Virus record (IMG/VR): IMGVR_UViG_3300025679_000005
Reading direction: 5' to 3' (one strand)
Source of the DNA: a virus
Taxonomy: Duplodnaviria; Caudoviricetes
DNA: 64,000 nucleotides
A model generated the notes under the pieces. The model was not told the origin of the DNA, searched no databases, and worked only from the letters and a program-made list of their open reading frames with translations. A program made the position numbers and the translations under genes. This document shows, in pieces, positions 1,960 to 47,594 of the stretch; the first letter of the stretch is position 1; every line of letters starts with the position of its first letter.

Positions 1960-4136
1960 TGCCTATGAGCAGGACCCCTAAACACGTCCAGGGCTCTACC
2001 CCCGGCAAGGACTTTGTTGATACCGCGGATATCAGCGGGATCAAGATCGGTATGGTCATTCGTGTCGACGAAGTGAACATGAAGGCCGATCTGAAGATTC
2101 TCAGCAGCAGCAGTGAGCGGTACGAAATCGATCTGACCCAGGGGATCGCAGGGCCACGGAGCTTCTGGGGTGGTATCCCCGAGGTCAACTCCTTGGTGGT
2201 CGTTGGGTACCGTCGAATCCACAAGCATCTGTACGATGCTGTGATCTTGGGTTACTTGCCTACGGGCAATCGTGCCGGCCTGCGCTTTGATCCCCACTCC
2301 CCGGAAGACCCTGGGGAAATCAGCGCTGAGGATAGGGACAACTTCGCTCAAGTCCTTGGCACGACCAGGCGTCTTAAGCGTCTGAACCTTCGTCCTGGTG
2401 ATGTGGGTGGCATGTCCGCTTCCGGGTCTGAGCTAGTCCTCAGCAAAGATGTGAGGATGGCGAACCGCGCCGGGGACTCCATCGAGCTACGAGACTCCGA
2501 TCGCACCCTCATCTCGCAGACCATCCACAGGGTCGAGAGTGACGCCGGCATCAAGAGGATTTCAGGCCCTATCCGACGTGGGACCTTCTTCATTCCGAAC
2601 GACCTGCTCAAAGCTGACGGGACACTACGGGACACAGACACAGCCTACTATGGCCGAGACACCTTGCAGATAGCGGGCCCAGGGATCGGTTCGGGGTCTG
2701 CGGCTAAGTTTTCGAACGCTGCTGGCAAACCCCTCAGTTTGTTCAATGACACGACCACGTTTCCCCCGGTCACCTACTCCAATGGTCGTCGGGTGCACTA
2801 TCCGCCGACATCTCCAGCAGTCAGTATCGAAGATCCCAATGAGTCTGCTGACGCTTTCGTCGAAGATCGCCTAGAGCTTGGCCACACTTCTGATTTGACT
2901 CAAGAAGTGATTGAGGAGATTGACGGATTCTCCTTGGATCGGAATACACCCTACATCGAAAGAGTCATGGGGACAGTGGTGGGCAATGACTCATCGACTA
3001 CTAGGGGGCAGCGTCAGTACGGCAAAATCCTGAAGCCTAAGCTTTTCCCTGACTTTCAGTCTATCGCTTTAGGCAAATTCACGCTTGAGGCTGTCGATCG
3101 GAACCCTACGGCACCAGACCTTGAAGTAGCAACCTCTGCGGCGGCCTTCTACTTTAAGGTGCGCCCCCCTAGGTCTACTGGAGACAACGCTTTCGTAGCG
3201 GCTGTCAGCAAGCAAGGAAAGCTGTTTTTGAATGTCCCCGCCTCTACGGTTGAAGACTACCCTAGCGGTACCAAGAAGGTGTCCGTTGAGATGAGCCTAG
3301 AAGGCGCCCTCAAGGCCTTCATTGGAGCCTCGAACCCTGACCGCATCTCCGCACACATAACCCTTGAAGGCGGGTTGCATTTGGACATCGGTAGGGATGC
3401 CCAGGGCAACGCTATCACCACGAGGTACCACTCGGGGACCAAAACGGTCTACGAGGGAAATCCCAACGAAGACGACGTGACAGCCAGCCTTGAAATACGG
3501 GGCATCAAAGAATCGAACATATCTGGAGCAGAGCGGAAGGTCATCGAAGGTTCGAAGCAGACGACCGTTAGCGGCCAGTACCAGGTGAATGCCGACCGCT
3601 ACAGTGTGAATGCATTCCAGGGAGCCTCGCTAAACTTCGGTGAACTCAATCAGATGGTCAGCGGCAAGACCCAGTTGAACTTTGCACTTCAGGTTCTAGA
3701 GAACATCGCTTTGGGTGGCAAGATTTCTACAATTTTGGCTGGTGGCTTGACTCAGACGGTCCTTGCGGGAGCAATCTCTTATAGTGCCTTGGCAGGAGCC
3801 GTCTCTATTGCAGCCCCGGCAGGAGCCTACTCGGTCACGGTTGGAGTAGGGGCCATGTCCATGACCACAGGAGCAGGGGCTGTCACCATCTCCACAGGAG
3901 CGGGCGTCATGTCCTTGGCAGCAGGGGCTGGTGCCATATCGATGACGGCTGGTTTGGCCATTAACTTGGCGGCTACAACCATCATCTCGATGATAGCCCC
4001 TCAGATACTTTTTGGCGGCCCAGCGGCCGTCCTAGGGGTTGTTAGAGGGGTGCCGGCAATGCCACCCGGGTCTCCGTCTTTGGACATCATCACTGGGATC
4101 CCACTTCCAGGAAGTGCCCTAGTAAGGTCTCTCTGA
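1959..4136 (+). CDS. Baseplate central spike (gp5/gpV/VgrG-like)
   Basis: N-terminal OB-fold-like segment (GMVIRVDEVNMKADL...WGGIPEVNSLVVVGY). C-terminal ~8-residue Gly/Ala repeats (AGAISYSALAGAVSIAAPAGAYSVTVGVGAMSMTTGAGAVTIS) fit a triple beta-helix. Position follows the hub gene. Confidence 0.8.
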   Translation: MPMSRTPKHVQGSTPGKDFVDTADISGIKIGMVIRVDEVNMKADLKILSSSSERYEIDLTQGIAGPRSFWGGIPEVNSLVVVGYRRIHKHLYDAVILGYLPTGNRAGLRFDPHSPEDPGEISAEDRDNFAQVLGTTRRLKRLNLRPGDVGGMSASGSELVLSKDVRMANRAGDSIELRDSDRTLISQTIHRVESDAGIKRISGPIRRGTFFIPNDLLKADGTLRDTDTAYYGRDTLQIAGPGIGSGSAAKFSNAAGKPLSLFNDTTTFPPVTYSNGRRVHYPPTSPAVSIEDPNESADAFVEDRLELGHTSDLTQEVIEEIDGFSLDRNTPYIERVMGTVVGNDSSTTRGQRQYGKILKPKLFPDFQSIALGKFTLEAVDRNPTAPDLEVATSAAAFYFKVRPPRSTGDNAFVAAVSKQGKLFLNVPASTVEDYPSGTKKVSVEMSLEGALKAFIGASNPDRISAHITLEGGLHLDIGRDAQGNAITTRYHSGTKTVYEGNPNEDDVTASLEIRGIKESNISGAERKVIEGSKQTTVSGQYQVNADRYSVNAFQGASLNFGELNQMVSGKTQLNFALQVLENIALGGKISTILAGGLTQTVLAGAISYSALAGAVSIAAPAGAYSVTVGVGAMSMTTGAGAVTISTGAGVMSLAAGAGAISMTAGLAINLAATTIISMIAPQILFGGPAAVLGVVRGVPAMPPGSPSLDIITGIPLPGSALVRSL

Positions 4137-15184: not shown

Positions 15185-18100
15185 ATGGCAACTGCACCTC
15201 AAATAGCTCTTCGAGACGGGTCTGGGTTTACTCAAAACCTGGTTCTGACTACCAATCTTGAGTTCATCTCCCTGTCGGGCACGGTGGACATCAATACCGT
15301 GGATATCCAGGTGTCGATCAATGGGGCGTCCTTCGTGTCAGACCCCAGCTTGGTCGGCCTCAATGGGCAAGTTTTCACGATCCCAAACCCGGCTTCTTAC
15401 CCAGACGGTCTGACCCTTGACCTTGGCGTAAACACAATTGCCATCCGAGCCATCGACATTGTGGGTGGGGTTAGCCCCGTGTCTTTGGCGACTGTGACTA
15501 TGGTGGCTCAAATCAGCGGCTCTGACGCTCTGATTCCTACGGGTATCCGCTCGAACCGCAGACGAGACTCGGTCGACATCCTTGCTGCCGTTCCGGTTTC
15601 TTCGAGCGGTTTGTTTCAGTTCGTCGGCTTCAACTTCTATGCTTCTGCCACTGCTGGCGGTACTGACGGATACTTCAAAGTCAATGCCACCCCTGTCACC
15701 ACACAGTCGACGCAGTTCCAAGAGGACTTGCTGGACATCTTCGACGCCAACACTGTGTTCACTGCGCAAAAAGAGGTTACTGTCAACGTAACCACACAGG
15801 ATGCCACAGGGGTACCGACGACCGTCTACACAAATACGGCCAACACCTTCGGCCTCACCGGTTCCCTGAAGTTTACTGGCTCTATGCAGAGCCGTGCCCT
15901 GACTCAATTCATCTACTTTAACCACATCCGATCGACGGGCGCCAACGCGGACCAGTTCATTGACGTGGACGCCTCGGCCCCTCTTTACTACGTAGTGACT
16001 GGCGTCTTCTATGACACGGCCTTGGCACAGGAACTGGAGACTCCCTACAGTCAGGAAATATTGGGGACGCCCCTCACCATCGACGCCTCAATCCAAGATC
16101 TCCCTGGGCGGACTCAGTTCCAGATCCTACTGGATTTCGTGTCTGGAATTCAAGCGTCGGACCAACTGATCTCTTTGATTCCTGGCTCGACCGTCAGAGA
16201 CATCACCATCGACCCGTTTGCCAGTGAGGCTGAGCGCCTCTGGTTCATCATCGATTTCGTCCACAAGTCTTCGAGCTTCCTGACGCTCCTACAAATCGAC
16301 GACACTAACAACGACGGAGTGTCCGATCCGGTTGTCAGCAGCCCATACAAGCAGGCTTTGAGAGCCGCATTAGGCCTTCAGACCGACGCCGCCGTTCAAC
16401 AGCTTATTGACGTACAGTTCGACAAGTTGGCCAACAACTTCATGAAGCCTAGGTTGCCGGGACGCCCTGCGGTGGGTCAGGTAGTATTTTACACGCCAAC
16501 TAGGCCTACTCTGGATATCACGATTGCTTCCGGGTCTATCGTGTCTACGGACGCGGATCCAGCCAACAACTTGCCCTCAGTGCGGTACTTGGTTGGTGGT
16601 ACGTTTGTGCTCCCAGCAGCACAGGCAGGCGCCTTCTACAACTTCAGCACCCGTCGTTACGAGATCATCGCAGATGTGGTCGCACAGACTATCGGCAGTG
16701 ATGGCAATCGTTCAGCCGGCGAGATCGTAAACATCGTCAGTTCTGTTGGTGGGATGCAGGTCACGAACACCGAATCAACTGTTTTCGGTACTGATCGTGA
16801 GAGCAACGGCGACCTAGCCGCACGTGCAATGCTTGGCTTCGTGTCGGTGGACACAGGTACTGAGGGCGGATACACCGCCACAGCTGCGGGCCAGGTCGGT
16901 ATCGTCAAGAACAAGATCGTCAAGTCGGGCGACCCCTTGATGATGCGCGACTACGACGAAGTTCGCCACAAGCACATCGGCGGCAAGGTAGACGTGTGGA
17001 TCCAAGGTCTTCGGGAGCGCACTGTCGTGGAGAGGTTCGCCTTCTCCTTCGATCTGGCCACGGACATCCGATGCCAGATCATAGACCTACCCAACTTGAT
17101 TTTCCGAGTCCTTGACAGCCGTGTGACCCCCAACTCTCCTATCGTAGAGATTTTGGACAATCTTAGCCAGAACCAGGGCGTTCGAAACGCCACTCAGGGA
17201 TTGAACTACAATTTGTCGGGGGTAGTGATCATCGACTACCAGACCTTCCAGGTCAATACCTCTATAGCTCAACCGGTCACTGCCATTGATGACATCGTGA
17301 CGGCTGACTACCGTTTCCGTTCTGTAAACCAGTTCAAGTTTACGCTTCAGCCGGTTCGTAGGGTGATCTCGGTGGTGGGCGAGGCCTCGGGTGCCCTTGA
17401 TGTGACCGCCGGGTTCAGCTTGTTCAAGACGGAAGACCCCCTACTCAACGGGGAGAGCACGATCGCAAGTGACTACTTAGTCATCAACCAAATAGGTGGC
17501 GTGCCTACGGGTGCATCGATCCCAGTCAACGACGAAGAACACGTGATCATAGGCTTCTTCGAGGAGTCCTTAGCATCGATCGGTATCAACACTACGACAA
17601 TCAGGGTGTTCAACCAGGCCCGCTCAATCGAATACGCGGGTCCTGGGTCGGCTATTCCTGACTTTGATATCGTGGCAGGTACCTCGACGACGCCTGTCAA
17701 GATCGTGCGCACTAATCCCTCGAACATTGTGAGCGGTCAGACGGTGTCGGTGGATTATACCCACGACGAAAACTTCACGGCCACCTACGTGATCAATGAC
17801 CTCCTGCAACAGCTCCAACGCACGATCAGTAGCCGCAGGCACGCCACTGCCGACGTGCTCGTGAAGCAGTCCATCCTCAATGACGTAGCCTTGGAGACAA
17901 CGGTTCAGCTCAAGCCAGGGGCTACCAAAGACAAGGTGGACCCGGCCGTCCGATCGTCAGTGTCCATAGAGTTGGATCAGAAGCTCATTGGCCAGGGTGT
18001 AGCTCAATCGGACATCATCAATGCCGTGGATTCTACGGATGGCGTGGACTTCCAGGTGATACCCATGGCTAAAATGGGGTACGCCGATGGTTCGAGGAAG

Positions 18101-18598
18101 CTTAGGGAGAGCATCCTCTCGACCGCCAACCGAACCCCTAGCCTGGACATCGGGGGTAACCAGGTCTTTATCCTCACCAACTCGTTGAAGTTCCCCACCA
18201 CAGACGGTGGCGGCCTGGTAACAGAGCACCGTGGAGTGTTCTCGGACGATGAGGCCCTGGTTCTGTCTGGCGCTATGCCTTCTGTGGGCCAGTTCTCGAA
18301 CCAGGCCTACATCTTGGGTTCGGAAGGTGCAATCATTGCCGGCTACAGCGACGACGCCACTTTGATCGCCGCAGGGTTCACGACAGCGACCATCGTCGCA
18401 GCAGAGAGGCTAAGCTTGACGGCGAACCACGTCTTGTTGAGCCTCTCCGGAGCAGGGATCCCGCCAGACGCCCCTTCCGACCACGTGTACGCTGTCAGCT
18501 ACACCATTCGTGGCGATATCGGGCCGCACGACATCACGGCAACACAGGTTGAGGCACTTGACCTAGGTGCTCTGACTTTGACGCTCAGGAGCGCCTGA
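15185..18598 (+). CDS. Baseplate J-like (gp6) wedge protein, extended
   Basis: PGSTVRDI, FDKLANNFMKPRLPGRPAVGQVVF, VAQTIGSDGNRSAGEI and VTN...FGTDRESNGDLAAR...GTEGGY are characteristic Baseplate_J segments. Confidence 0.9.
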   Translation: MATAPQIALRDGSGFTQNLVLTTNLEFISLSGTVDINTVDIQVSINGASFVSDPSLVGLNGQVFTIPNPASYPDGLTLDLGVNTIAIRAIDIVGGVSPVSLATVTMVAQISGSDALIPTGIRSNRRRDSVDILAAVPVSSSGLFQFVGFNFYASATAGGTDGYFKVNATPVTTQSTQFQEDLLDIFDANTVFTAQKEVTVNVTTQDATGVPTTVYTNTANTFGLTGSLKFTGSMQSRALTQFIYFNHIRSTGANADQFIDVDASAPLYYVVTGVFYDTALAQELETPYSQEILGTPLTIDASIQDLPGRTQFQILLDFVSGIQASDQLISLIPGSTVRDITIDPFASEAERLWFIIDFVHKSSSFLTLLQIDDTNNDGVSDPVVSSPYKQALRAALGLQTDAAVQQLIDVQFDKLANNFMKPRLPGRPAVGQVVFYTPTRPTLDITIASGSIVSTDADPANNLPSVRYLVGGTFVLPAAQAGAFYNFSTRRYEIIADVVAQTIGSDGNRSAGEIVNIVSSVGGMQVTNTESTVFGTDRESNGDLAARAMLGFVSVDTGTEGGYTATAAGQVGIVKNKIVKSGDPLMMRDYDEVRHKHIGGKVDVWIQGLRERTVVERFAFSFDLATDIRCQIIDLPNLIFRVLDSRVTPNSPIVEILDNLSQNQGVRNATQGLNYNLSGVVIIDYQTFQVNTSIAQPVTAIDDIVTADYRFRSVNQFKFTLQPVRRVISVVGEASGALDVTAGFSLFKTEDPLLNGESTIASDYLVINQIGGVPTGASIPVNDEEHVIIGFFEESLASIGINTTTIRVFNQARSIEYAGPGSAIPDFDIVAGTSTTPVKIVRTNPSNIVSGQTVSVDYTHDENFTATYVINDLLQQLQRTISSRRHATADVLVKQSILNDVALETTVQLKPGATKDKVDPAVRSSVSIELDQKLIGQGVAQSDIINAVDSTDGVDFQVIPMAKMGYADGSRKLRESILSTANRTPSLDIGGNQVFILTNSLKFPTTDGGGLVTEHRGVFSDDEALVLSGAMPSVGQFSNQAYILGSEGAIIAGYSDDATLIAAGFTTATIVAAERLSLTANHVLLSLSGAGIPPDAPSDHVYAVSYTIRGDIGPHDITATQVEALDLGALTLTLRSA

Positions 18599-31446: not shown

Positions 31447-32103
31447 ATGAGCATGAAGATGACCGAGCAGACCCCCAAGCCGCGGAACCAGGTATCCTCA
31501 GCCTTCGCTGTGCGTCCCGCCGACAACTTTGGCGAAAAAGGCTATTACATTCGCGGGGATGTCTTCTTCAAGATGCACGATGGAAAGACCGGAGAACTCC
31601 AATGGGAGTCGGAACTCCGGAATCTTGTGGTCATGGACGCCTCAATTCTCATCGCCCGGCTGATGAAGGACAACCAGGAGGTCCCCCATGGCGTGTTTGC
31701 CCTGGCTGTGGGCTCCGGAGACAGCGGTTGGAACGTGATGTCTCCTCCAGCTCCGACCAGCACCCAAAGGGCGTTGTATTCGGAAATAACGCGAAAGACT
31801 TTCTCGGACACTCAATTCGTGGATGGCAACGGTGTTCCAGTAGCCTACCCCACCAAAGTTGTCGACTTCACTACGAATTTCACAGAATCCGAAGCGGTCG
31901 GGCCATTGGTCGAAATGGGCCTCCTCGGCGGCAACGTCAGCACTAACCTCTCTGTCAGGGATCCGGTCACCCCTCCAAACGGAACCTACGATTCCACAGT
32001 CGACTTGACTCAATTTGACACTCTGGTCAACTATCTGACTTTTCCAGTAGTCAACAAACCAGCTACATCGACCTTTCAGATCGTGTGGAGGTTGAGTTTC
32101 TGA
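31447..32103 (+). CDS. Tail-collar fibre / DUF3751-like protein
   Basis: NLVV...ALAVGSGD...PAPTSTQRALYSEITRK...EAVGPLVEMGLLGG...FPVVNK...IVWRLSF pattern. GAGAGGA precedes the ATG. Confidence 0.75.
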   Translation: MSMKMTEQTPKPRNQVSSAFAVRPADNFGEKGYYIRGDVFFKMHDGKTGELQWESELRNLVVMDASILIARLMKDNQEVPHGVFALAVGSGDSGWNVMSPPAPTSTQRALYSEITRKTFSDTQFVDGNGVPVAYPTKVVDFTTNFTESEAVGPLVEMGLLGGNVSTNLSVRDPVTPPNGTYDSTVDLTQFDTLVNYLTFPVVNKPATSTFQIVWRLSF

Positions 32104-37201: not shown

Positions 37202-40200
37202 GTGATGACTGATAATTTCGGGCCGAATGTTTCACGAGTTCTGAGCCCCGCGCAAGCCTCCTACAAGACTGTAGTGTTCCAGGCGGGGCGGCCTCCATTG
37301 GACAGCGAGATGTCCTTTGCGCAGCAGATTGCGGCAGAATGGGACCGTTTACACGTTCTGACTGGGACTCCGTCGGGCTGGCTCGATGATGCCATCAATC
37401 CTCAAGATTCGTATGTCACCAGCGTCAACTACTCCAACTGGTTCCAGTACGGCGACCAACAGGCTGGGGAACGCCAGTCCATCATGTGGGCTGTGGTCAA
37501 CGGTTGGATAGTGCCAGTCACGGGAACCCTGACAGGTGCTCCCCCGGGCTCTCCCAACGACTCGGACACTTGGAACCGAATTACCTTGCCCCCGCCCCCC
37601 GCCAACACAGGGGATGCTCGTATCGATTTCGCCTTTCTTGAGGTTTGGCAGGCTCGTGTGGCTCCGAATCCGTCGACCACGAACAAGCCCGCTTCCTCGG
37701 CCGTCTACCGGTACGGTAACGTCGAAGGTGGCGCTAGCTTCATTGCAGATGACATGCAGGACCCTCAAATAGGGTTTGAGACAAGCCAGCGGATTCAGCT
37801 CCAATATCGTATCCGCATAGCTTCGGGCTTAGTTGGTTTGGCCAGCTACCCAGACGGCTTCGACCCCTCAGTGGTCAAGGGTCAGGGCACAGCAACAACG
37901 CCTTCGAGCTACGTGTTCACGAATATGCGTACCGAGCTGGGCGACCCCGGTCTCTGGCGTGCTGGCGACGGCACCCAAAACTCTTTGGGGACTGTCGACG
38001 GGTATACCTATGCAATCCCTATTTGCGGCGTCTTCCGCCGTAACAGTGTGGGTTGGGCGGGGGACCCTAGCCAGAACCTCAACGGCGCCTTCAACCGTAA
38101 TCCACTGGCCGTGGACCGAACGGGATACAAGACTTTCGCACTGGCCCCGACGATTGTAGGCGGGATCACAGCTACCTCTACGAGCCTGACCCTTTCATCA
38201 GTCGTTAACCTCTCGATACCTCTGACTCCCGTGACCCCAGTTGCGATTCAGATTGGCGATGAGATCCTGTACTACTCAGTGATCACAGGCACGACTATGA
38301 CGCTCAGCGCTCGTGGCGCTTTCGGCTCCAAGGCTGAAGCCCACAAGACGGGTTCTACCATTAAGACCGTATCCGGTCGTCCGGACGGCCTATTTGCAGA
38401 CCAGGTTGCAAAGACGGACATTTTGGATCTCCGCCATGTCGTGAGTCCAAACGGCTTCGACTACGCAGCCCTTCTCAAGGGCAACCTCGACAAGCTCCTC
38501 CGGGGTCAGCTGCACTCGACTTGGAAGCGCTCCGGTGGCGGACCACAGGGCACCTTCGTGGCTTATCAGGACAAGGTGTCGGCTACGCCGGGTGCTCTGG
38601 GTGTCACCAAGCTCGATGCTCCGGACGGTATCCGGCAAATATTTGCAGAGCCCGCGTCTTTGCAGCCGGTCATCATCCCAATTTCGTCCCCTGCTTCAAC
38701 TAGTACATCCCCTCAAGCAATTGGCGGGACCCTGGGTGCGGCTTTCAACACTGGAGTCACAGCCATCCACCCTGCGGGCACAGGGTTCCAGCCTGGGGAT
38801 ATTATTACGATTTCACGGAGCCTATTCCTGAATTCGTTACCAGGCAGCGATTCGGATCAACTGCACCTACTGGCCGACAACACCTATTTCTCAATACGCT
38901 TCATGGGTGAGACAACAGATTGCTCGAACACGACATATTCGCTATCCAACGACGGATCGGGGAACCTACTCATCACGTTTGGAGGCGGCTTCACGGTTCG
39001 CAATCTAGGAGCTTTCATCACCTTGTATGTGCAGTATGGTGCCGGACGTGGCATGAGCCGAAAACCCGACGCCATCCACAGCGTGGCTTACCTCTCTGCT
39101 TCACCCAACATCTTGGTACAGCAGCAGGGGCTACCAGCTGGCAATCAGCCAATTCGTACAACATGGGCCGCCCTATGGTCTAAGTTCCAAGCTGGACCGT
39201 TCAACGGGCATCTTGCGTCGACTGCTGAGGCCTACGCGGATCCAGGCAGCAAGAGTGTTATCTTGACGCCGTTCCGTCGGCACACCTTCAGTGGGCCGAA
39301 TTTCAAGAGCACCCAGAAGTACGTGAATACCGGCAACCCCTCAGATGCCCAGTTCGGCGCTATGCCTGCTTATACTCCAGGGGGTTCTCCAAAGTGGACG
39401 ACAACGGACCCTCTAGGCGTGTTCTCTGGATACTCTGACCCGACGACAGCTAGGGCCAACATGTGCGTGATCCTACCCAGGCGCCTCATGCCAGGTTACG
39501 GTGAAGTCCGTGTTCCAATCTTGTACTCAGACTCGGGGAACTTCGCTGAAGGTATCAACTTCGCTTTCAGCGCTCCCAAGGGAGGCACTCCAGGTAATGA
39601 CTATACGAACTTTGTGCCTCCTACGGACGGCAGCGGCGCAGCAACCTACGGTGTGTTCTCGACGCTGAACCTCACCAACAGCACACCAGTCGCCTACAAT
39701 ACGGCGTACACAGACGGCCTCCTCATCGCTGGCATGAGGTTTTTCACAGATACACGGGGCTTGAACCGCCAGGGTCTAGAACTACCGCCATTCTACGGGA
39801 TTGCTCGCCTATTCGCTGTATACGAGGCTCAGGACTACAAGGCGCACGGCAGTGCTTACAACCCCACTACTCGCGCTTTCGTGGGTACGGGCGCAACAAA
39901 CCTACTTCGCCAGAACTTCTCTGGTCCGACCTTCTGGATTGAGTCCGATGTAGACGGCGACCCTACGTTCATCCTGAACGCAGACGCTATCGATATCACG
40001 AAGTCCCCGAATGCGATCTCCGCGTTCAACTCGGCCCATTATGTGATCGAGTCCTCGATCTTCGGCTGTGACCGTGGGGCGTTCGACTTGTCCCAGGATT
40101 GCCGCATTGTCCTCAGTCGTACTCGCAATGAGGGTACGACTGCTGGAGTCACAATGGCTACGAACCCCTCGTTCGTACTGCCGGGTGCTCCGGAAATCGG

Positions 40201-41257
40201 CGACGAAATAGCAATCAACTATAGCCGCACTCCTTACCAGGGTGATGCTTGGGGCTCTCAGCAAGCACAGTCTGACATAGGGTACAAGCCTGGCCCGTTG
40301 GCAACTTCTGTTCGATACCAGCTATTGAACTCGGTATTAGACCAGGCCAACCTGACTCGCCCCAATCAGAAAACCCTTGAAGTCTTGGCGGGAGTCCACT
40401 TCGTCACGACCTTGGGTACAGGGCGTTTCTCTGGTTCTGTCCCGACCTCCAATGACGACTTCAGGAACGTAGGCTTCGAAAGCTGGCTACCTCTGCCGAC
40501 AACTCCAGTGGATGCGCGACCAACGATTCAGCCCACGGCCTTGAATGCTCTAGAGCGTGTCATGACCTTGGGTACGGAGTACTTGGGGTGCATTGAGCGC
40601 CTGCCTTTGGGAGCCCTCTTCCGGGACAAGGACTTCCGAGGCAACTACGTCAGTGGTCTGACCCTCACCCAAAATGGGGTCAATGGCCCACTTTCGATGG
40701 GTTATGGGGCTCCAGGTCTGATGGGTGCAAGCATTGCTCCAGACAATAACCTGGAATACACGGTGATCCCAGCCCATACAGCCTCTATCTCTTCCGGCAG
40801 CGCTGGAGAAATAGTGGTGCATGTTGACGGCGACGCCGGTAACTACAATGTAGTCACCAACTTCCGAACCAATCGTGGTGGCTCCGCTTTCACTGCCTCT
40901 GGCTTTGCTGGTGGAGATATCGGCGGCATCCTTCCAGGTTCGTCAGGGAATACCACCTCGGGTGGCATCCTCTCTGGTATTGCGATGTTGGTTCGTAACG
41001 TACCGACCAGCATCGGGTCTACCGAAGTCAGTGCAGGTCAGGAACTGATGCTTCTGATCGCTACCACGGCTAGGGCTCAGAATAGTGGCGCTAATCTCAA
41101 CACTGTTCAGGTGAGCACTTCCGGCACTGGCGAGGGTTACAGTGCCGTCGACCTGTACCGTATTAGTGGTCACCCAATCACCAATGACTCCAGTCGTGAG
41201 ATTGTCGATCCGACGATTATCAAACTGGCTCGCCCCTCCGACATTTTGAGCGTTTAA
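37202..41257 (+). CDS. DUF4815-like baseplate/tail fibre-attachment protein, paralogue B (1351 aa)
   Basis: N-terminal YKTVVFQAGRPPLDSEM resembles the YxxVLFxPGRPLQAREL start of DUF4815-type proteins. Shares multiple blocks with 32103-34712. Confidence 0.7.
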   Translation: MMTDNFGPNVSRVLSPAQASYKTVVFQAGRPPLDSEMSFAQQIAAEWDRLHVLTGTPSGWLDDAINPQDSYVTSVNYSNWFQYGDQQAGERQSIMWAVVNGWIVPVTGTLTGAPPGSPNDSDTWNRITLPPPPANTGDARIDFAFLEVWQARVAPNPSTTNKPASSAVYRYGNVEGGASFIADDMQDPQIGFETSQRIQLQYRIRIASGLVGLASYPDGFDPSVVKGQGTATTPSSYVFTNMRTELGDPGLWRAGDGTQNSLGTVDGYTYAIPICGVFRRNSVGWAGDPSQNLNGAFNRNPLAVDRTGYKTFALAPTIVGGITATSTSLTLSSVVNLSIPLTPVTPVAIQIGDEILYYSVITGTTMTLSARGAFGSKAEAHKTGSTIKTVSGRPDGLFADQVAKTDILDLRHVVSPNGFDYAALLKGNLDKLLRGQLHSTWKRSGGGPQGTFVAYQDKVSATPGALGVTKLDAPDGIRQIFAEPASLQPVIIPISSPASTSTSPQAIGGTLGAAFNTGVTAIHPAGTGFQPGDIITISRSLFLNSLPGSDSDQLHLLADNTYFSIRFMGETTDCSNTTYSLSNDGSGNLLITFGGGFTVRNLGAFITLYVQYGAGRGMSRKPDAIHSVAYLSASPNILVQQQGLPAGNQPIRTTWAALWSKFQAGPFNGHLASTAEAYADPGSKSVILTPFRRHTFSGPNFKSTQKYVNTGNPSDAQFGAMPAYTPGGSPKWTTTDPLGVFSGYSDPTTARANMCVILPRRLMPGYGEVRVPILYSDSGNFAEGINFAFSAPKGGTPGNDYTNFVPPTDGSGAATYGVFSTLNLTNSTPVAYNTAYTDGLLIAGMRFFTDTRGLNRQGLELPPFYGIARLFAVYEAQDYKAHGSAYNPTTRAFVGTGATNLLRQNFSGPTFWIESDVDGDPTFILNADAIDITKSPNAISAFNSAHYVIESSIFGCDRGAFDLSQDCRIVLSRTRNEGTTAGVTMATNPSFVLPGAPEIGDEIAINYSRTPYQGDAWGSQQAQSDIGYKPGPLATSVRYQLLNSVLDQANLTRPNQKTLEVLAGVHFVTTLGTGRFSGSVPTSNDDFRNVGFESWLPLPTTPVDARPTIQPTALNALERVMTLGTEYLGCIERLPLGALFRDKDFRGNYVSGLTLTQNGVNGPLSMGYGAPGLMGASIAPDNNLEYTVIPAHTASISSGSAGEIVVHVDGDAGNYNVVTNFRTNRGGSAFTASGFAGGDIGGILPGSSGNTTSGGILSGIAMLVRNVPTSIGSTEVSAGQELMLLIATTARAQNSGANLNTVQVSTSGTGEGYSAVDLYRISGHPITNDSSREIVDPTIIKLARPSDILSV

Positions 41258-41259
41258 TC

Positions 41260-41457
41260 ATGGCCATTGAGAGTATGACCTATCTTGATATTCCGGTGGC
41301 CGCTCGCCAAGCGAACGCGGCCAAGGCCATCAACCGACTTGTGGAGCGCATGAACGAGGTCGGGGTGTCGGCTGAGCAGCGTGAGCTGATGGCTGCCCAA
41401 GTCAAGCGCATCGAACAATGGATGCAGGGGACACTCCCTGCTCCTGAAGGGATTTGA
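41260..41457 (+). CDS. Small helical hypothetical protein (65 aa)
   Basis: Tightly packed between flanking genes (2-3 nt gaps). Confidence 0.6.
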   Translation: MAIESMTYLDIPVAARQANAAKAINRLVERMNEVGVSAEQRELMAAQVKRIEQWMQGTLPAPEGI

Positions 41458-41460
41458 GTC

Positions 41461-42138
41461 ATGGACCAAGCAGTACTAGCGTTTCTGACCAAAGGGACCT
41501 TCGTCCTTGCGGTTCTTGTCGTTGTCATCAACTTCTTCATTCGGCGGACTGTCCAGCTGATTCGTCCAGACTTTAAGCCTCTTGGCGGGGCCATGGACAA
41601 GAAGGCCATGTACGCAGATACTGCAGCGATGTGGTGGAACGAGATCGGCCTCTACGCTTTGCCTGTGGTCATTGGTGCGAACTTGGGTTTGGTCAAAGGC
41701 CTGGGATTCTTGTTCGATCCTTCGATCAAGACAGTGTCCGGTCACGTGTTTTATGCGGCAGTCGTGGGTTGGTTCGCGGACTTCTTGTACGAAGTGATTC
41801 AGAAGATCCTGTACAAGAGCACGGGTGTAACTTTGCCCAGTGCCAATGATTTGGGATCAGCCTCCTCCGAGGTTGTGGTCGTTCACGAAGAGCGCAAGGA
41901 ACACCACGAGGATGCCCCCACAACGACTGTCGCAACCACGACTACGACAGTGACGGTGAAGACTCCTGAGCCGGTCCCAGAGGCGGAGCCTGCCACTATT
42001 CCAGTTCCTGCTGCGGTTCCAGCAGCCCCTGTAGAAGTCGTAGCTACAGTAGTTCCTGTTGCTGCTCCAGCTGAAGTTCCGCCGGGCCCAGCTCCTACTG
42101 CATTAGGCGGTGGCGAAGAGCCTCCGAAGAGTGGTTGA
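41461..42138 (+). CDS. Putative holin-like membrane protein (about 3 TM segments) with Pro/Ala/Val-rich tail
   Basis: Hydrophobic stretches FVLAVLVVVINFFI, IGLYALPVVIGANLGLV and VFYAAVVGWFADFLY. Position at the end of the tail block. Confidence 0.6.
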   Translation: MDQAVLAFLTKGTFVLAVLVVVINFFIRRTVQLIRPDFKPLGGAMDKKAMYADTAAMWWNEIGLYALPVVIGANLGLVKGLGFLFDPSIKTVSGHVFYAAVVGWFADFLYEVIQKILYKSTGVTLPSANDLGSASSEVVVVHEERKEHHEDAPTTTVATTTTTVTVKTPEPVPEAEPATIPVPAAVPAAPVEVVATVVPVAAPAEVPPGPAPTALGGGEEPPKSG

Positions 42139-42142
42139 TCCC

Positions 42143-42664
42143 ATGGCGCCTACTACTGAACCTACCTTTTGGTCAGCGGCTTGGGTTTGGACCAAGAAAG
42201 CGGCCCGCATGGTGGCCGCTCCCCTTCCGGCCTTGCTGTTGATGGCAGGGGCTATCGTCCTAGTCGTTCTAGGGGCTAAGAACATCCAAATCGGTGGTCT
42301 ATTGGGCAAGTTGTTCGGTAAGGATCCAGCGAGCAGCAAAGCTGTGGACGTAGCCAACACCATTCCGGCTCATCGGGTGGATTCGAATGGTGCCATCATC
42401 CCGGTGGGTACCCCGGATGCAACAGGGCAGACCCAGGCGGTGGTTGTCCCGATCGCTACCCCCACCATGTTCTCTGACCCGAACACGGTGACGATTACGC
42501 CTCCGAACTCAGCTCCCGTGGTCGTGGCGTTGCCTACCGGTGTAAAGTCATCCGACGTGGACAAGGTCGTGATAGTGAAGCCCGAAATCTACGCGGTTAC
42601 CGTGAAGGACTCTTCTTCGGTGACCGGGTCCCATATCGACGACCTGCTGAAGAAGTATCAATGA
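42143..42664 (+). CDS. N-terminally anchored membrane protein (i-spanin-like position)
   Basis: ATG 42143 is in the frame of the track ORF. TM segment PLPALLLMAGAIVLVVLGA followed by a Pro/Val/Thr-rich soluble region. Confidence 0.55.
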   Translation: MAPTTEPTFWSAAWVWTKKAARMVAAPLPALLLMAGAIVLVVLGAKNIQIGGLLGKLFGKDPASSKAVDVANTIPAHRVDSNGAIIPVGTPDATGQTQAVVVPIATPTMFSDPNTVTITPPNSAPVVVALPTGVKSSDVDKVVIVKPEIYAVTVKDSSSVTGSHIDDLLKKYQ

Positions 42665-43269
42665 GAAAAATCCTCCTGATCCTGTTGACGCTATTTTTGG
42701 GCATCACGCCAATGGGGGCTCAGGCTCAGGAGTGTGCTCCTGGCAGCAAGTGTGTGTCCGCAGACGACCTAAACACTCTTCTCACAATAGCGAGAGAGAA
42801 GCAGTGCCTACTCAGCACCCAGCCTACCATCACGATGGATCCGGTCACACTGACTATCGATCGCCAGGGGCGCATCTTCTTCACAGGCTCGGCTCCGCAC
42901 CCATACTCATTGAAGATGTCTTGGTGCAATTACACCTTGGCCGCCCAAGGAAAAGTCACTGTTGTGGCTGCTGTCGAAGAGCCGCCGGACTGGGGTTTCC
43001 GATTTCGGCCGAAAGCCTACATGGGTGTTTTGCCCCTGGAGCCTTTCCACACGGGCAACAACGCAAGGAGCGCAGTGGATGCGGGCCTCATGCTCGACCC
43101 GCTGTACTACAAGTTCCTGAACCTCAACGTTCACGTAGGATTCCGAGCTGTGGGCGCTGGCATTGGAGTAGATCTGACTCGTAATTTTGGGGTGTATGCC
43201 GGCTACGCACTCACGTGGGACGGTTTCAGGCAGAATCCTGAAGCGGCACTCTGGTTTTCTTTCTTCTGA
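42661..43269 (+). CDS. Secreted protein with signal peptide and C-terminal amphipathic beta strands (outer-membrane/spanin-like)
   Basis: MRKILLILLTLFLGITPMGAQA is a SPase I-type signal. Alternating strands LNLNVHVGF, VGAGIGVDL, FGVYAGYALTW. Terminal ALWFSFF. ATGA overlap with the upstream gene. Confidence 0.6.
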   Translation: MRKILLILLTLFLGITPMGAQAQECAPGSKCVSADDLNTLLTIAREKQCLLSTQPTITMDPVTLTIDRQGRIFFTGSAPHPYSLKMSWCNYTLAAQGKVTVVAAVEEPPDWGFRFRPKAYMGVLPLEPFHTGNNARSAVDAGLMLDPLYYKFLNLNVHVGFRAVGAGIGVDLTRNFGVYAGYALTWDGFRQNPEAALWFSFF

Positions 43270-43397: not shown

Positions 43398-46300
43398 ATG
43401 CCCGACGATATCAAGCTCAGTCCCGAACAGCAGAAACTCTATGAGGAGCTGAAAGCCGTCCGTGCTCGCACAGATGTGAAGCTGCCGCCCTCTCCCATTC
43501 TTCGTCAGGAAATAGCAGGGCTGGACGGTGTGCTCCAGCCTTTCACCTTCCGCTATTACCAAGTACAGGGCATCTACCACATGCTTCGCCTGAAGCGTAT
43601 GGTGCTAGGGGACAGCACTGGCTTGGGCAAGTGTACGACCCTTGATACTAGGCTCATTACGGACAGGGGGCAGATCTCCTTGGCTGCTTTGAAGCCCGAA
43701 GGGGACCTAGTCGAGGGGTTCTATGACCTCCCTTTCCCTGTTAATGTTTGGACTGGCCTAGAAACTGCCCCTGTCCGTCGGTTCTATTGGGGCGGCATCA
43801 AGCCCACGGTTAGGGTGACTACTAGAAACGGATTCGTATTGGAGGGCAGCCGAGTACATCCTGTGCTCATAAGAAGTGCCACTGGAGAGGTGTTTTCCAA
43901 ACTACCTGCCCTCAATGAGGGGGACTTTGTTTGCATCGATCGCAATGAGGCGTACTTCCCAGAGACAGAACCAGAACTCAAAGCATTGGACAAGGAGGTC
44001 AGTCCTAACAGGGGGTTCAAGTACCCTGAGCGACTCACTCCGGACTTAGCTGCACTATTGGGTTGGCACATAGCTGAAGGTTGTAGACACCCAACATCCG
44101 TGAATGTGGCTCAGTACATCGACTCCAACCCTGAATGTCATGCGGAGATAGAGCGCCTGTTTCAAGTTGTGTTCGGGTGGTTCAACTTGAATAAAAGGGA
44201 CCTGGAGAAGGTTAACGTCTGCTCTCAGGACATACGTCGATTCCTGATTGGGTGTGGTTTAGCTGAAGTGCTGGCGGCTGGTAAAGAGGTCCCTGAGTGT
44301 GTCCTTAGGGGATCCAGGGAGTCCGTCCGTCGGTTTCTTAGTGCATACATGGAGGCCGAGGGGTCAGTGGCCTCTTGTGGGTTCGAGGTCAGCTCGGCTT
44401 CTGAGAAGCTGATTAAGCAGGTGCAAGGCCTACTGTTACGTTTTGGGGTGGTATCAACTAGGTCCCCAAAACACGTAAAAGGCTATGAGCACACCTATTG
44501 GCGCCTGTCCTTTTTTTCGAATGACGCCAGGACATTCCAGGAGAAGATCGGGCTGATCTCTACCCGAAAACGGGAGGCCTTCCGAGACACTCTACAGAAG
44601 GACTCAAATCCAAATAAGGATGTAATCCCTCACTCTATCGATCATGTGGGCGCCCTAAAAGCACTGCTACTTAAGGCTACTTCTAGGAGTGGGGCTAACG
44701 CTAATCGTAAGGGTTCTGGTATCAAGCAATTTGGACACTCTTTCCAATCCACTTTTACGCATATCCTAACGGGCGTCCGAGACCCAACTTATCAATGGCT
44801 GGACAAGCTCCTGGCTGTTGCTAGTGAGTTGGGCTTAGAAAAAGAGCCAGAATATCAAGAGGTGCAGAGGATTAGGTCCAACAACTACTTCTACGACCCT
44901 GTAGTCAAAATAGAACAGAGTGAAGCAGAGGTGGCTGACCTAGAGATTGAGCACCATTCCCACTGCTTCTCTGGGAACGGCTTCATCAATCACAATACGA
45001 TCGAGACAATTGGTACTCTTGCATACCTCTGGGAGAAGCGCCCAGAGACCAAGGTCATCGTCGTGGCCCCCAAGTCGGCTATCCGTCAGTGGTCTGATGA
45101 AATAGAACGCTTTACTAAGGGTGTGAAGGTCTACATCGCCACGGCCCCCAAAGAGAAGGGAGAGTCCCCCATTGAGGCGAGAGAACGCATCTACGAGGCT
45201 TGGGCTAACGCTCCCTCGGGGCCTAACGACCCGAAGGCAGTCCTCATTCTGAATTACGCCTTGTTGATCAGAGACTGGAATCACGGGGGTTTCCAGCCCC
45301 TAAAACCCAACGGGCAACCGGACCCGAAGGCCCCGGTTTTGCCAGGGTTGTTGGACAAAATAACCAAGAAGGTGGCCGAGAATCTGACTGTCATCTTCGA
45401 TGAAGCCACTGCTTTCAAGTCAATGCGAACGAAGACTTGGGAGGTCGTTCGCTTCCTCTCGGATCGATCGAACCGTGTCTATGCGTTGACAGCCACCCTT
45501 CTCAAGAACAACCTCATGGAGGGCTACTGCATCTACAAGGCCATCCTACCGACGCTCTTTGGAGCCAAGACGAAGTTCATGGAGGACTACACCTTCTATG
45601 AGTTGAAGTCCGTGGGTAGGGCCAAAGTGCCAGTAATCAAGGGGTACAAGAACCTGGACCACTTCAAGGCGGCCATCGACCTGTACTTCCTAGGTCGACA
45701 GAAGCACGTCGTGTCCAAGGAACTGCCTGTACTGACCACACGAGAAATAACCTGCGAGCTGAATGAAGCCGAGGTGCTCAAGTACCGTGAGGCTCTGACA
45801 GGGATTCTAGAACTAGGGGACGGCCAGGTCAAAGAGTTCGAGGAGACGAAGGCCCTCACGAGCCTCATCTACTGCCAACAGGTGGTCAACTCGCTCTCCC
45901 TCCTCAAGTTCAATGAGGGTGACGAAGTCGGCGGGTTCGACCTAGACCTGAAAGTCGCGAAAATAGGCAACCTTTGCAGTAAAGAGCAGGCCCTATTGGA
46001 CCTGCTCACCGAGGACTTGGAGGGTGACAAGGTCATCGTCTATACTCGTTTTGAAAGCCTCGTGGCGAGATTGCAGGAGATCCTCAAGAAGAATGGGATC
46101 AGGAGCGCTCGAATCACAGGCAAAGAGAAGGACACGGATCGCCAGAAGGCTAAGGCAGCCTTCCAAGACCTGAAGTCAGATGTCAAGGTCATCTTCATCA
46201 CAGCCGCTGGCAGCGAGGCCATCAACCTCCAAGCAGCCGCCGGCATGATTTTCTACGACCAGCCGTGGTCGTGGGGTGACTATGTCCAGTGTCTAGATAT

Positions 46301-47594
46301 GGACACTGAGGTCTTAACCAAAAGGGGGTTCTTGAAACGGGTCGAGATTGGAGTGGAGGATTCTGTGGCAGCCCTTGACCCTATCAGTTCAAGCATTACG
46401 TGGCAGCCAATCTTGTCACTGACAGATCGTGCCCTGGCTCCGGGAGAGTCGATGTATTCTATAAAAAACCAGCACATTGACATACGTGTAACAGGTGGTC
46501 ATCGCATGGTTTTCAAGAGAAAGACATCCAAAGATCATGAACCTGTTTGGCCCGATGAGTGGGAATTCGTTACCTGTGAAGAGCTGTCAAAAGAAAAGTC
46601 TGAATTCAGATTGCCAGTGAGTGGGCTGGAGGCCCTACCTACGACAGAAGCCCCCGTGACCGACTCAGAATTACGATTCATTGGCTGGTTTATGTCTGAT
46701 GGCACTTACAACAAGAAGATAGCGCAGATCCAGATTGTACAAGCTGAGCACCAACCCCAAATTCATGATTTGAGGGCCTGTCTACAAGAGTGTGGATTTG
46801 ATTGGAAGGAGTACCGCAGGGACCCCTCGAAGATCAAGGGGTGCTATCCTAACGGCAAACCTCAAATCCAATTTGCCATTCCTAAGGGTGTCGCAAAAGG
46901 GAGTCGGAAACGGAACGGCTGGAACCATTTGGCAGCATACCTGGATAAGGGCCTAGCCCCCATCATGGAGGATTTGAGCCCTAGGCAATTGGGTGTGTTT
47001 CTAGAGGCCCTCCATTTGGGGGATGGGGCAAAGAATTACGATTCGTCTTGGACACAAAGAACCTACCATATTTCTACAGGGTCTAAGGTATTTGCGAACA
47101 GACTTCAGAGTTTATGCCTGAGGCGCGGGTATCATTGCAATCTATATGAGCCTCGTGAGAGCACGACTATTATCCGTATCAAAGAGGTCACGCATCGAAG
47201 CTTGTCTGGAGGTAGGACAGCAGGCAGACCTAAGTTTGACGTTTCTCCCCATGTGGAGGGGGAGAGGGTGTGGTGTGTGGAGAATCCTGTGGGGACTTTA
47301 GTTACTCGTCGAAACGGGAAAGTAGCCATTGTAGGCAATTGTCTGGGTCGCATGATCCGCATCGGTTCGCCCCACACGGGTGTAATGGCCTACCACCTTC
47401 TGGCTGAACTGCCGGAAGTGGCCAAGAAAGACCGTAAGACCATAGACCATCACGTCCTGGGCATGCTCAGGAAAAAGAAAAACCTCATCGACAAGGTGTT
47501 GGGCGAAGCCGCTATCGGCGCCCTGGAATTCGACAGCGAAGGCTCTTCGTCGTTGAAAGACCTCGTCCGTGCAATGCAAGGAAAAGCAACGTAA
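43398..47594 (+). CDS. SNF2-like (SF2) helicase precursor containing two inteins (about 593 aa after splicing)
   Basis: Motif I GDSTGLGK/T split by intein 1; motif II DEAT; LTATLLKN; VIVYTRF; TAAGSEAINLQAA; motif VI Q/CLGRMIRIG split by intein 2. Confidence 0.92.
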   Translation: MPDDIKLSPEQQKLYEELKAVRARTDVKLPPSPILRQEIAGLDGVLQPFTFRYYQVQGIYHMLRLKRMVLGDSTGLGKCTTLDTRLITDRGQISLAALKPEGDLVEGFYDLPFPVNVWTGLETAPVRRFYWGGIKPTVRVTTRNGFVLEGSRVHPVLIRSATGEVFSKLPALNEGDFVCIDRNEAYFPETEPELKALDKEVSPNRGFKYPERLTPDLAALLGWHIAEGCRHPTSVNVAQYIDSNPECHAEIERLFQVVFGWFNLNKRDLEKVNVCSQDIRRFLIGCGLAEVLAAGKEVPECVLRGSRESVRRFLSAYMEAEGSVASCGFEVSSASEKLIKQVQGLLLRFGVVSTRSPKHVKGYEHTYWRLSFFSNDARTFQEKIGLISTRKREAFRDTLQKDSNPNKDVIPHSIDHVGALKALLLKATSRSGANANRKGSGIKQFGHSFQSTFTHILTGVRDPTYQWLDKLLAVASELGLEKEPEYQEVQRIRSNNYFYDPVVKIEQSEAEVADLEIEHHSHCFSGNGFINHNTIETIGTLAYLWEKRPETKVIVVAPKSAIRQWSDEIERFTKGVKVYIATAPKEKGESPIEARERIYEAWANAPSGPNDPKAVLILNYALLIRDWNHGGFQPLKPNGQPDPKAPVLPGLLDKITKKVAENLTVIFDEATAFKSMRTKTWEVVRFLSDRSNRVYALTATLLKNNLMEGYCIYKAILPTLFGAKTKFMEDYTFYELKSVGRAKVPVIKGYKNLDHFKAAIDLYFLGRQKHVVSKELPVLTTREITCELNEAEVLKYREALTGILELGDGQVKEFEETKALTSLIYCQQVVNSLSLLKFNEGDEVGGFDLDLKVAKIGNLCSKEQALLDLLTEDLEGDKVIVYTRFESLVARLQEILKKNGIRSARITGKEKDTDRQKAKAAFQDLKSDVKVIFITAAGSEAINLQAAAGMIFYDQPWSWGDYVQCLDMDTEVLTKRGFLKRVEIGVEDSVAALDPISSSITWQPILSLTDRALAPGESMYSIKNQHIDIRVTGGHRMVFKRKTSKDHEPVWPDEWEFVTCEELSKEKSEFRLPVSGLEALPTTEAPVTDSELRFIGWFMSDGTYNKKIAQIQIVQAEHQPQIHDLRACLQECGFDWKEYRRDPSKIKGCYPNGKPQIQFAIPKGVAKGSRKRNGWNHLAAYLDKGLAPIMEDLSPRQLGVFLEALHLGDGAKNYDSSWTQRTYHISTGSKVFANRLQSLCLRRGYHCNLYEPRESTTIIRIKEVTHRSLSGGRTAGRPKFDVSPHVEGERVWCVENPVGTLVTRRNGKVAIVGNCLGRMIRIGSPHTGVMAYHLLAELPEVAKKDRKTIDHHVLGMLRKKKNLIDKVLGEAAIGALEFDSEGSSSLKDLVRAMQGKAT
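43632..44996 (+). mobile_element. Intein 1 (455 aa) with LAGLIDADG homing endonuclease, inserted in the Walker A motif
   Basis: GLGK|CTTLDTRLITDRG ... GFINHN|T. LAGLIDADG-like helices LLGWHIAEG and FLSAYMEAEG. Confidence 0.93.
46290..47339 (+). mobile_element. Intein 2 (350 aa) with LAGLIDADG-type endonuclease, inserted in helicase motif VI
   Basis: DYVQ|CLDMDTEVLTKRG ... VWCVENPVGTLVTRRNGKVAIVGN|C. Helices FIGWFMSDG and FLEALHLGDG. The penultimate residue is Gly rather than His. Confidence 0.93.

Follow-up and report, generated by a model that had tools for sequence, protein, structure and literature searches.

A phage envelope gene pair encoding a predicted bitopic membrane protein and an exported protein with a barrel-type domain, conserved across a clade of huge phages

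Introduction

The closest described counterparts of the genes reported here are the two-component spanins (lambda Rz/Rz1, T7 gp18.5/18.7, T4 PseT.3/PseT.2 and phiKZ gp141/141.1), in which an N-terminally anchored inner-membrane protein, the i-spanin, and an exported, outer-membrane-directed lipoprotein, the o-spanin, are encoded by adjacent or overlapping genes. Here we describe a cassette of four genes, termed A, B, C and D, at positions 41260-43269 of a 64,000-nucleotide stretch of DNA (hereafter the window) from the Caudoviricetes virus record IMGVR_UViG_3300025679_000005 of IMG/VR. Its conserved core is the pair C-D, which we tentatively propose may stand in place of a lipoprotein spanin pair. 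Like the two-component spanins, C and D are encoded by adjacent or overlapping genes with holin-like genes nearby, C is predicted to be N-anchored in the inner membrane and D to be exported and outer-membrane-directed, single-chain versions of the pair exist, and the family is found in phages only. Unlike the spanins, D has no lipobox and carries a β-barrel-type domain in place of a short Pro-rich lipoprotein, C is β-rich and without a coiled coil, no sequence or fold similarity joins the two systems, and the cassette contains no endolysin.

In the unimolecular spanin of phage T1, gp11, an inner-membrane helix and an outer-membrane anchor are combined in one chain with a β-rich middle, and the fused forms of C-D would be built likewise. 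The polarity of the fused proteins is reversed, with the transmembrane (TM) helix at the N-terminus and the predicted outer-membrane anchor, a barrel and not a lipid, at the C-terminus; the gp11-type combination of an N-terminal lipoprotein signal with a C-terminal TM segment is absent from fused C-D, and most fusions keep a cleavable-looking internal signal peptide that would separate the two halves. The lysis cassette of the jumbo phage phiKZ comprises a small cytoplasmic regulator, a holin, an i-spanin, an o-spanin and an endolysin (PMC12894885). The A-B-C-D cassette parallels it in clustering a small, possibly cytoplasmic protein, a holin-like protein and putative inner- and outer-membrane partners; unlike it, the cassette holds neither an endolysin nor a lipoprotein o-spanin, and no homology to the phiKZ cassette proteins was detected.

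Small eight-stranded outer-membrane barrels (OmpX/Ail/Lom, the N-domain of OmpA, PagL, NspA and OmpW) share with D a signal peptide, amphipathic up-and-down strands, a predicted hydrophobic exterior and polar salt-bridged interior, and an aromatic-rich last strand, and lambda lom lies among tail genes as D follows a tail-fibre-like (TF) gene. D differs in its barrel of about 95 residues with six confidently modelled strands, its predicted N-terminal periplasmic domain, its lack of Pfam membership and its structural Z scores of 4-5 to these proteins, and it is a core gene coupled to C where Lom-type genes are sporadic morons. Holins of class I are small proteins with three TM helices and a charged C-terminal tail; B has three hydrophobic segments and a tail that is first charged and then Pro-rich, with weak holin-family matches confined to its homologues. 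Holins of class III (T4 gpt) resemble C in gross layout only, with no Pfam, PHROG, NCBIfam or fold match.

About 15% of phages of Gram-negative hosts have no recognisable spanins (bioRxiv 10.1101/515445). In the published literature we found no description of a barrel-type outer spanin partner. To our knowledge, the sole characterised alternative to spanins is the disruptin peptide of phage phiKT.

C and D are coupled across relatives and repeatedly fused

Gene C (42143-42664, + strand, 173 aa) and gene D (42661-43269, + strand, 202 aa) overlap by 4 nt (ATGA). Thirty-three related loci were first collected (30 from IMG/VR and three others), about 27 of which were distinct after duplicates had been set aside, and in the 33 the gene order TF - (A) - (B) - C - D - SNF2 - p312 - DnaB is kept. 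Of the 36 distinct loci that were examined in relatives, 35 contain both C and D, the exception being L070, where nothing of C was seen beside D, and in distant lineages a hidden Markov model (HMM) of C returned E values of 3e-17 to 7e-42. The conservation of the two proteins is about equal to that of DnaB. The pair also stays together in a different neighbourhood, that of nucleotide-metabolism genes in locus L066.

In 11 of 27 loci no more than 50 nt separate the two genes, and the remaining loci have 0.4-2 kb of inserted genes between them. The inserts sampled encode GIY-YIG/NUMOD3 homing endonucleases of two families, a family with weak similarity to DnaJ, a Zeta-toxin-like protein and two open reading frames (ORFs) that belong to no family. 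The DnaJ-like proteins, of 300-440 aa with the weak J-domain at the N-terminus, recur in 10 relatives, where their genes lie at differing sites near C and D and often right between the two (for example L001:4901-6004, L009:6844-8001, L017:6491-7573, L021:6815-7993 and L028:6886-7977).

At least 11 family representatives carry C and D as one ORF. Nine of them (P0155, P0156, P0167, P0171, P0180, P0188, P0190, P0197 and P0224) have an internal hydrophobic segment between the halves, and in P0125 and P0127 the C domain is joined straight to the N-terminal domain of D with no such segment. In the two of the nine that were located on contigs, the C-like half matches the C HMM with E values of 1e-25 to 1e-28. 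One fused gene, L034:5001-6065, lies between the TF-like gene and SNF2 behind a terminator-like hairpin of its own and an AT-rich spacer, and another, L062:3976-5052, lies upstream of SNF2. Split and fused forms are closely related, the D half of P0188 being 49% identical to a split D. An origin of the fusions as read-through or recoding artefacts was considered and rejected, since the stop/start region is wholly absent at the junctions. Fusions of this "Rosetta-stone" kind, together with the synteny, are strong evidence that C and D work together. An earlier note on this DNA had tied the last protein of the cassette to its N-anchored neighbour, and the overlap, the fusions and the co-occurrence all bear this out. 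A complex prediction for C(58-173) with D(22-202), run with our own alignments, gave scores of 0.13, 0.31 and 0.52, with a median of 0.31 against a mark of 0.32 and controls at 0.00, and was not used either way.

The fusions with a signal-peptide-like internal segment may represent a phage membrane polyprotein that is cut by host signal peptidase.

Protein D carries a signal peptide and a barrel-type domain

D begins with a signal peptide (residues 1-22; 42661-42726, + strand) that is conserved in the family alignment and of the signal peptidase I type, with cleavage predicted after AQA, between ...GAQA and QE, and with Cys at mature position +3. The window protein has no lipobox of the kind that marks o-spanins, and of 194 members of the family 3 have a lipobox-like motif, in line with the earlier assignment of a signal peptidase I signal. 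Next come a predicted N-terminal periplasmic domain (residues ~23-105; 42727-42975, + strand), with a helix at 34-52 and a small sheet, and a C-terminal β-meander (residues ~106-202; 42976-43269, + strand) that resembles an outer-membrane barrel and ends in LWFSFF.

A word-indexed search returned 111 homologues of D at E < 1e-30, many on contigs of 150-475 kb, and a profile search against 1.84 billion representatives recovered 115 clusters at 50% identity, numbers that place the family far beyond chance. No relative turned up when 185,579 species genomes were scanned by pattern. The alignment of the family (A1) conserves the signal peptide, Cys25, Cys31, Cys49 and Cys89, the motifs WGFRFRPKAY, GFR(S/A)xGxGxGxD and NFGxYxGYA, and the last strand. 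The four cysteines behave like two pairs, Cys25/Cys31 and Cys49/Cys89, the first of which is lost jointly in P0108 and P0125, and members of the wider family mostly have 4, 2 or 0 Cys. This paired loss points to two disulfides and not to one metal site, and thus to a periplasmic protein. At the C-terminus, F199 and F201 are invariant or nearly so and are followed by 0-4 residues (W, N, NP and others); 47 of 113 proteins of the wider family end in ...SFN. The terminal Phe, which the earlier note had related to BAM insertion, is therefore not conserved as such: the last residue varies, and what is kept is the F-x-F of the last strand.

The AlphaFold2 model of D, based on alignment A1, has a predicted local distance difference test score (pLDDT) of 86.7 overall and above 95 for residues 111-202. 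It places a helix at 34-52 and a small sheet at 56-97, followed by a meander of strands that run alternately up and down, five of them long (139-150, 153-160, 163-171, 176-185 and 191-200) and two short (111-113 and 118-123); amphipathic segments at 98-105 and 111-116 could raise the strand count to eight, at lower model confidence. In structural comparison with VIA-align, the top match was 9xzt, the designed soluble six-stranded barrel BBn6 described in PMC12478100 (Z 9.2 over 80 residues, root-mean-square deviation 2.4 Å), and the second was the designed TM barrel 6x9z (Z 6.3). The natural outer-membrane proteins PagL, Tsx, OmpW, OmpA, OprF, NspA and OprH followed at Z 4-5, mixed with soluble barrels. 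Foldseek against PDB gave nothing at E 1e-3 or better, and in BFVD and the ESM Atlas the matches, to models of phage and bacterial outer-membrane barrels, were weak. All these fold searches were dominated by residues 107-202, with the N-terminal domain effectively outside their reach. As modelled, the C-terminal domain is a small closed meander barrel.

One of 35 D members matched Pfam OMP_b-brl (PF13505) with an E value of 0.0018, below threshold, the window protein matched no outer-membrane protein family of Pfam, Ail_Lom included, and Phage_OMP (PF24653), raised by the look-alike search in the ESM Atlas, was absent from five relatives' genomes. The pattern of conservation on the strands is clearer. 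The hydrophobic face has a mean Wimley-White value of +0.83, an entropy of 1.44 bits and 3 invariant columns; the corresponding figures for the polar/Gly face are -0.85, 0.68 bits and 12 invariant columns (p = 2e-4), the invariants including R114, R116, K118, D140, D146, R162 and D171. Aromatic residues cluster at the strand ends, and the last strand is aromatic-rich. An invariant face of Gly, Asn, Asp and Arg combined with a variable hydrophobic face is the reverse of what a soluble barrel would have and fits a lipid-facing exterior around a salt-bridged lumen. Of the earlier description of D as a protein with about six amphipathic strands that would form a partial, oligomerising barrel, the amphipathic strands stand; a partial barrel has no support from the monomer model, which by its best structural match closes into a barrel of six strands.

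Protein C is a bitopic protein with a β-rich domain

The start of C was placed at ATG 42143, in agreement with the N-termini of homologues, which begin at an ...EPTFW... motif; the longest ORF, which starts at GTG 42110, was rejected on the same grounds. The protein has a single TM helix near its N-terminus (about residues 24-44), as the earlier description of an N-anchored protein had it. In an alignment of 26 sequences (A2) the mean column identity is 52%, and identity across the clade ranges from 43 to 72%. The N-terminal tail of the homologues is W-rich and amphipathic and has 2-4 K/R; the TM helix is followed by the motif IGGLLGKL(F/L)GK, with GG invariant in K(N/E)LQIGGLLGKL, and then by a β-rich globular domain and a C-terminal helix (DDLLKKY). 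The AlphaFold2 model (pLDDT 69) has strands within residues 100-154 and a helix at 162-172, with five β-strands in residues 95-173. A VIA-align search with this model produced no fold match (best Z 3.7, for helices only), and a word-based search for longer relatives of C found none, which is weak evidence.

Small proteins encoded before C

Upstream of C lie A (41260-41457, + strand, 65 aa), which hydropathy predicts to be soluble and helical and which has no hydrophobic segment, and B (41461-42138, + strand, 225 aa), with hydrophobic segments at about residues 13-29, 62-80 and 95-113. The earlier note's small helical ORF and 3-TM holin-like ORF are thus recovered. Homologues of A are present in 15 clustered relatives' loci, and in distant lineages an HMM of A matches small proteins encoded at the corresponding place (L062, E 5.5e-8; L065, E 0.024). 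A is possibly a cytoplasmic accessory protein or regulator. The option that A is part of the TF gene and not of the cassette was set aside: depending on the genome, insertions split A from TF or from B/C.

In B, the third hydrophobic segment is followed by a charged stretch and then by a Pro/Thr/Val-rich tail. The holin-like core comprises residues 1-125, in which R28 and G103 are invariant (alignment A3, 20 sequences). Three PHROG holin families are weakly matched by 8 of the 20 homologues of B (best E 2.6e-4), with no match for the B of the window itself, and Pfam returned for the homologues only scattered transporter noise.

The tail of the window's B (41830-42138) is about 100 residues long, rich in Thr, Pro, Val and Ala, and far longer than that of any aligned homologue. 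The closest relative, L004, has a short remnant of it with the same C-terminal motif, and the other homologues end shortly after the third hydrophobic segment in short Pro-rich tails.

In several other lineages a different protein occupies the place of B. In L061, L062, L063 and L065 the gene before C encodes a protein of 90-107 aa with two TM segments and a charged tail, and in L066 two proteins are encoded before C, one of 121 aa with two TM segments and one of 53 aa that is soluble. No relation of the two-TM proteins of these five loci to B could be detected. Non-orthologous replacement of this kind is typical of holins.

Candidate muralytic genes lie far from the cassette

The window cassette contains no endolysin, as the earlier note had observed, and none was seen in or beside the cassette at any relative's locus, judged from precomputed Pfam labels and ten sampled insert genes. 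A wider search covered five relatives' genomes. Phage_lysozyme, Amidase_2 and GH19 were found in none of the five, the GH19 control having failed as well; SLT was found in two, in large distant ORFs, and PG_binding_1 in three. In the closest relative, G001, a cluster of three genes lies ~52 kb downstream of D (L035:4288-8427). One product, of 369 aa, carries PG_binding_1 at its C-terminus; another, of 244 aa, has a hydrophobic segment at its N-terminus and an ES...LMQ motif, which we take to be SLT-like; the third is a peptidoglycan transglycosylase of family GT51 with a TM anchor. Homologues of the 244-aa and GT51 proteins lie ~50 kb from D in G002 (223-229 kb). The endolysin that had been expected elsewhere in the genome thus has candidates in two relatives, and lysis genes may be scattered in these phages, as they are in T4.

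The SLT-like protein is 244-283 aa long, and its N-terminal hydrophobic segment is possibly of the signal-arrest-release type. In G002, the GT51 gene is immediately preceded by a gene for a 166-aa protein with a TM segment and a coiled coil.

The genome of G002, which is 94% complete, was also screened crudely by lipobox for a canonical o-spanin. The screen gave four candidates, none beside a gene for a type-II membrane protein, a heuristic result that cannot prove absence. One of the lipoproteins seen in this genome (306774-306941, - strand; 55 aa, ...LLGAC) has a Pro/Trp-rich mature part of 39 residues and is Rz1-like in size and composition; no gene for a type-II membrane protein stands beside it, and its neighbours include an RtcB-like gene.

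A possible lysis-associated role and its alternatives

We propose a lysis-associated role at the envelope for A-B-C-D, with C-D standing in for a lipoprotein spanin pair, a reading to which we give somewhat less than an even chance. According to this model, huge lytic phages of one clade would express the cassette late, as an envelope module with C-D as its conserved core. D would be exported by Sec, cleaved by signal peptidase I and joined by two disulfides once in the periplasm, and its mini β-barrel of 6-8 strands would insert into the outer membrane of the host. C would provide a one-helix anchor in the inner membrane, so that C and D together could connect both membranes. The wall would be removed by a holin, which would be B in the window and an unrelated small TM protein elsewhere, together with a muralytic enzyme encoded at a distance, and once the wall had gone the C-D pair would destabilise the outer membrane, as the equivalent of an i-spanin/o-spanin pair with a barrel of the type inserted by the β-barrel assembly machinery (BAM). 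The earlier note had suggested a non-canonical system for disrupting the outer membrane. The conserved C-D module, the exported, barrel-like and non-lipoprotein D and the holin-like genes of several lineages speak for that suggestion, whereas the disruption itself is a step that we infer. In favour of the model we also count the tight packing of the four genes after the TF-like gene, the parallel with the phiKZ cassette, the outcome of the crude screen of G002, in which no lipoprotein gene stood beside one for a type-II membrane protein, and the share of phages in which spanins are not recognised.

A number of observations weigh against this model. The soluble domain of C, as modelled, is β-rich without a coiled coil, unlike that of known i-spanins; six strands are modelled with confidence in the D monomer, a lower count than in any natural outer-membrane protein known, and the structure that matches it best is a designed barrel that is soluble. 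The weak PHROG holin matches of the B homologues could come from hydrophobic composition, and L034 and L068 have no holin-like gene beside C-D. The candidate muralytic genes of the relatives are ~50 kb away from the cassette, with no endolysin at or next to it in any locus, as judged from the Pfam labels and sampled inserts named above. Finally, D has no relative in sequenced bacterial genomes and no host is known, so that a diderm host is assumed from the features of D itself.

The side of the membrane on which the C domain lies is the main difficulty. Within 15 residues of the TM helix there are on average 2.9 K/R before and 2.1 after it, which favours an N-in orientation and a periplasmic domain, and the N-tails, which reach 45-66 residues and in P0167 hold seven Arg, agree with this. 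Counted by ourselves over about 35 residues, the balance is reversed, with more K/R on the C-terminal side than in the N-tail, which is unfavourable to the model. The direct fusion in P0125 and P0127, with no hydrophobic spacer, implies that the C domain and D share one compartment, and so favours the periplasm. In the nine other fusions, the segment between the halves is as hydrophobic as the signal peptides of D and not as a TM helix (sums of +0.4 to +5, and above +6 in P0155, versus -5 to +1 for TM1, on a crude measure), and each of the nine retains small residues at -3/-1 ahead of Q[DE]C. Retention of this site implies cleavage by signal peptidase and hence a cytoplasmic C domain, again to the detriment of the model. 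It is mainly this conflict between the two types of fusion that holds our estimate for the lytic role below an even chance.

If the model is correct, these phages would complete lysis in a new way, one that is core to a clade of 300-500-kb phages; C-D would offer a handle for annotating lysis genes in huge phages, and D, as a natural outer-membrane barrel of unusually small size, would be of use in work on BAM-dependent folding. The stronger claim, that an inner-membrane-anchored protein and a BAM-inserted mini β-barrel, made in some lineages as one precursor cut by signal peptidase, constitute a third kind of device for breaching the outer membrane, strikes us as rather doubtful. Even in a non-lytic role, C-D would be an uncharacterised, phage-only and strongly conserved envelope module.

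Among the alternatives, D might be an accessory outer-membrane protein that alters the surface of the infected cell by receptor masking or superinfection exclusion, in the manner of T5 Llp, lambda Lom and Cor, thereby sparing progeny from adsorption to debris, with C as a membrane partner or an unrelated neighbour. Llp, Cor and Lom are encoded beside tail or receptor-binding genes, and D, which is exported and resembles outer-membrane proteins, is encoded directly after the large TF-like gene of these loci; the lack of an adjacent endolysin and the weak BFVD matches of D to phage 'opacity/OMP barrel' proteins fit as well. Such genes are, however, usually sporadic, whereas D, nearly always with C, stands in the same place in every relative examined and is conserved to the degree of DnaB. 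C and D are repeatedly fused and persist as a pair away from the TF gene in L066, and D matches neither Ail_Lom nor any other outer-membrane protein family of Pfam at threshold, nor any entry of PADLOC. The near-universal presence and fixed position of the pair thus weaken the Lom-like or exclusion role that the earlier note had listed as its alternative, and we consider it unlikely.

A second possibility is that C-D forms a non-lytic envelope device for the long infection of a huge phage, such as a trans-envelope tether or stabiliser or a small conduit, with the holin-like neighbours incidental. This would suit the strong conservation of the C-D core, which is unlike that of most lysis genes, a holin-like gene that is not always adjacent and an endolysin that is never adjacent in the loci examined, and the phages do carry other envelope genes, among them the GT51 transglycosylase and, in relatives, PspA-like and ion-channel genes. 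On the other hand, no transport, enzyme or tether family is detectable in C or D, a barrel of 6-8 strands with its lumen filled by Gly and salt bridges is unlikely to conduct much, and the recurrence of small holin-like TM proteins from two unrelated families would be hard to explain. We regard such a device as distinctly unlikely.

It is also conceivable that the C-terminal domain of D never enters a membrane and is a soluble closed six-stranded barrel of the periplasm, or a subunit of a soluble oligomer. BBn6 is by far its best match, natural outer-membrane proteins at Z 4-5 score no better than LpqH or Cap15, Foldseek found nothing below 1e-3 in PDB, only six strands are confidently modelled, and many family members end in N and not in an aromatic residue. 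A soluble barrel is nonetheless improbable given the inverted conservation, in which the Gly/Asn/Asp/Arg face is invariant and the face of large hydrophobic residues varies. It would be strange for a strand face exposed to solvent to hold seven invariant Gly, the aromatic residues cluster at strand ends, and one member reaches OMP_b-brl, at the E value given above.

Least credible is a scheme with C as the functional centre, a single-TM holin or holin regulator with the gross topology of T4 gpt, D as its regulator, located in the periplasm or anchored in the outer membrane (an antiholin or lysis-inhibition sensor like T4 RI), and A acting in the cytoplasm; the T4 holin gene does lie directly after tail-fibre genes, and a small soluble partner, A, is conserved nearby. 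With one TM helix, a short N-tail and a C-terminal domain of ~120 aa, C also has the gross layout of class III holins (PMC12894885). This scheme is quite improbable, however, as C resembles neither gpt nor any holin family in sequence or fold, the pair usually has another holin-like protein beside it (B or a two-TM protein), and holins evolve fast, whereas C is well conserved across the clade. We know of no precedent for an antiholin embedded in the outer membrane.

Genome setting

The window belongs to a phage of ~465 kb, the cluster of D being on a contig of 465,854 bp, and all its large ORFs are on the + strand. The four ORFs of the membrane cassette described earlier are all present there, co-directional and tightly packed, with 2, 3 and 4 nt separating TF, A, B and C before the C/D overlap. 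Neither A, B, C and D nor one fused C-D form received an assignment from Pfam, PHROG, NCBIfam or PADLOC; among 50,697 deposited phage genomes, neither blastn nor tblastn found a match to the cassette, and a scan for promoters and terminators around it gave nothing that exceeds shuffled expectation.

The cassette sits at the exact junction of structural genes and the replication module. Upstream are a Baseplate_J gene (15185-18598), a gene with a weak match to a tail-fibre-network protein (31447-32103) and, directly before A, the TF-like gene (37202-41257; 1351 aa), with a weak match to a tail-fibre PHROG. Downstream of D, the replication module opens with an intein-bearing SNF2 helicase gene (43398-47594; 1398 aa), followed by DnaB, a primase Zn-ribbon protein and PolA.

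A LAGLIDADG-bearing intein occupies about residues 80-533 of the SNF2 protein, and the translation alone suggests a second, intein-like insert at about residues 967-1335 (...QCLDMDTEV ... VGNC...); relatives have either uninterrupted SNF2 versions of 583 aa or versions with a single insert. Two further gene insertions were noted around the cassette of relatives. In L001, a gene for a zinc metalloprotease with a lipoprotein signal (...LTGAC), an HExxH motif and a weak match to Peptidase_M10 lies antisense between the TF-like gene and B (3062-3619, - strand), and in L062 a response regulator and histidine kinase pair (2041-3490) lies between the A-like gene and the genes for the two-TM protein and C-D.

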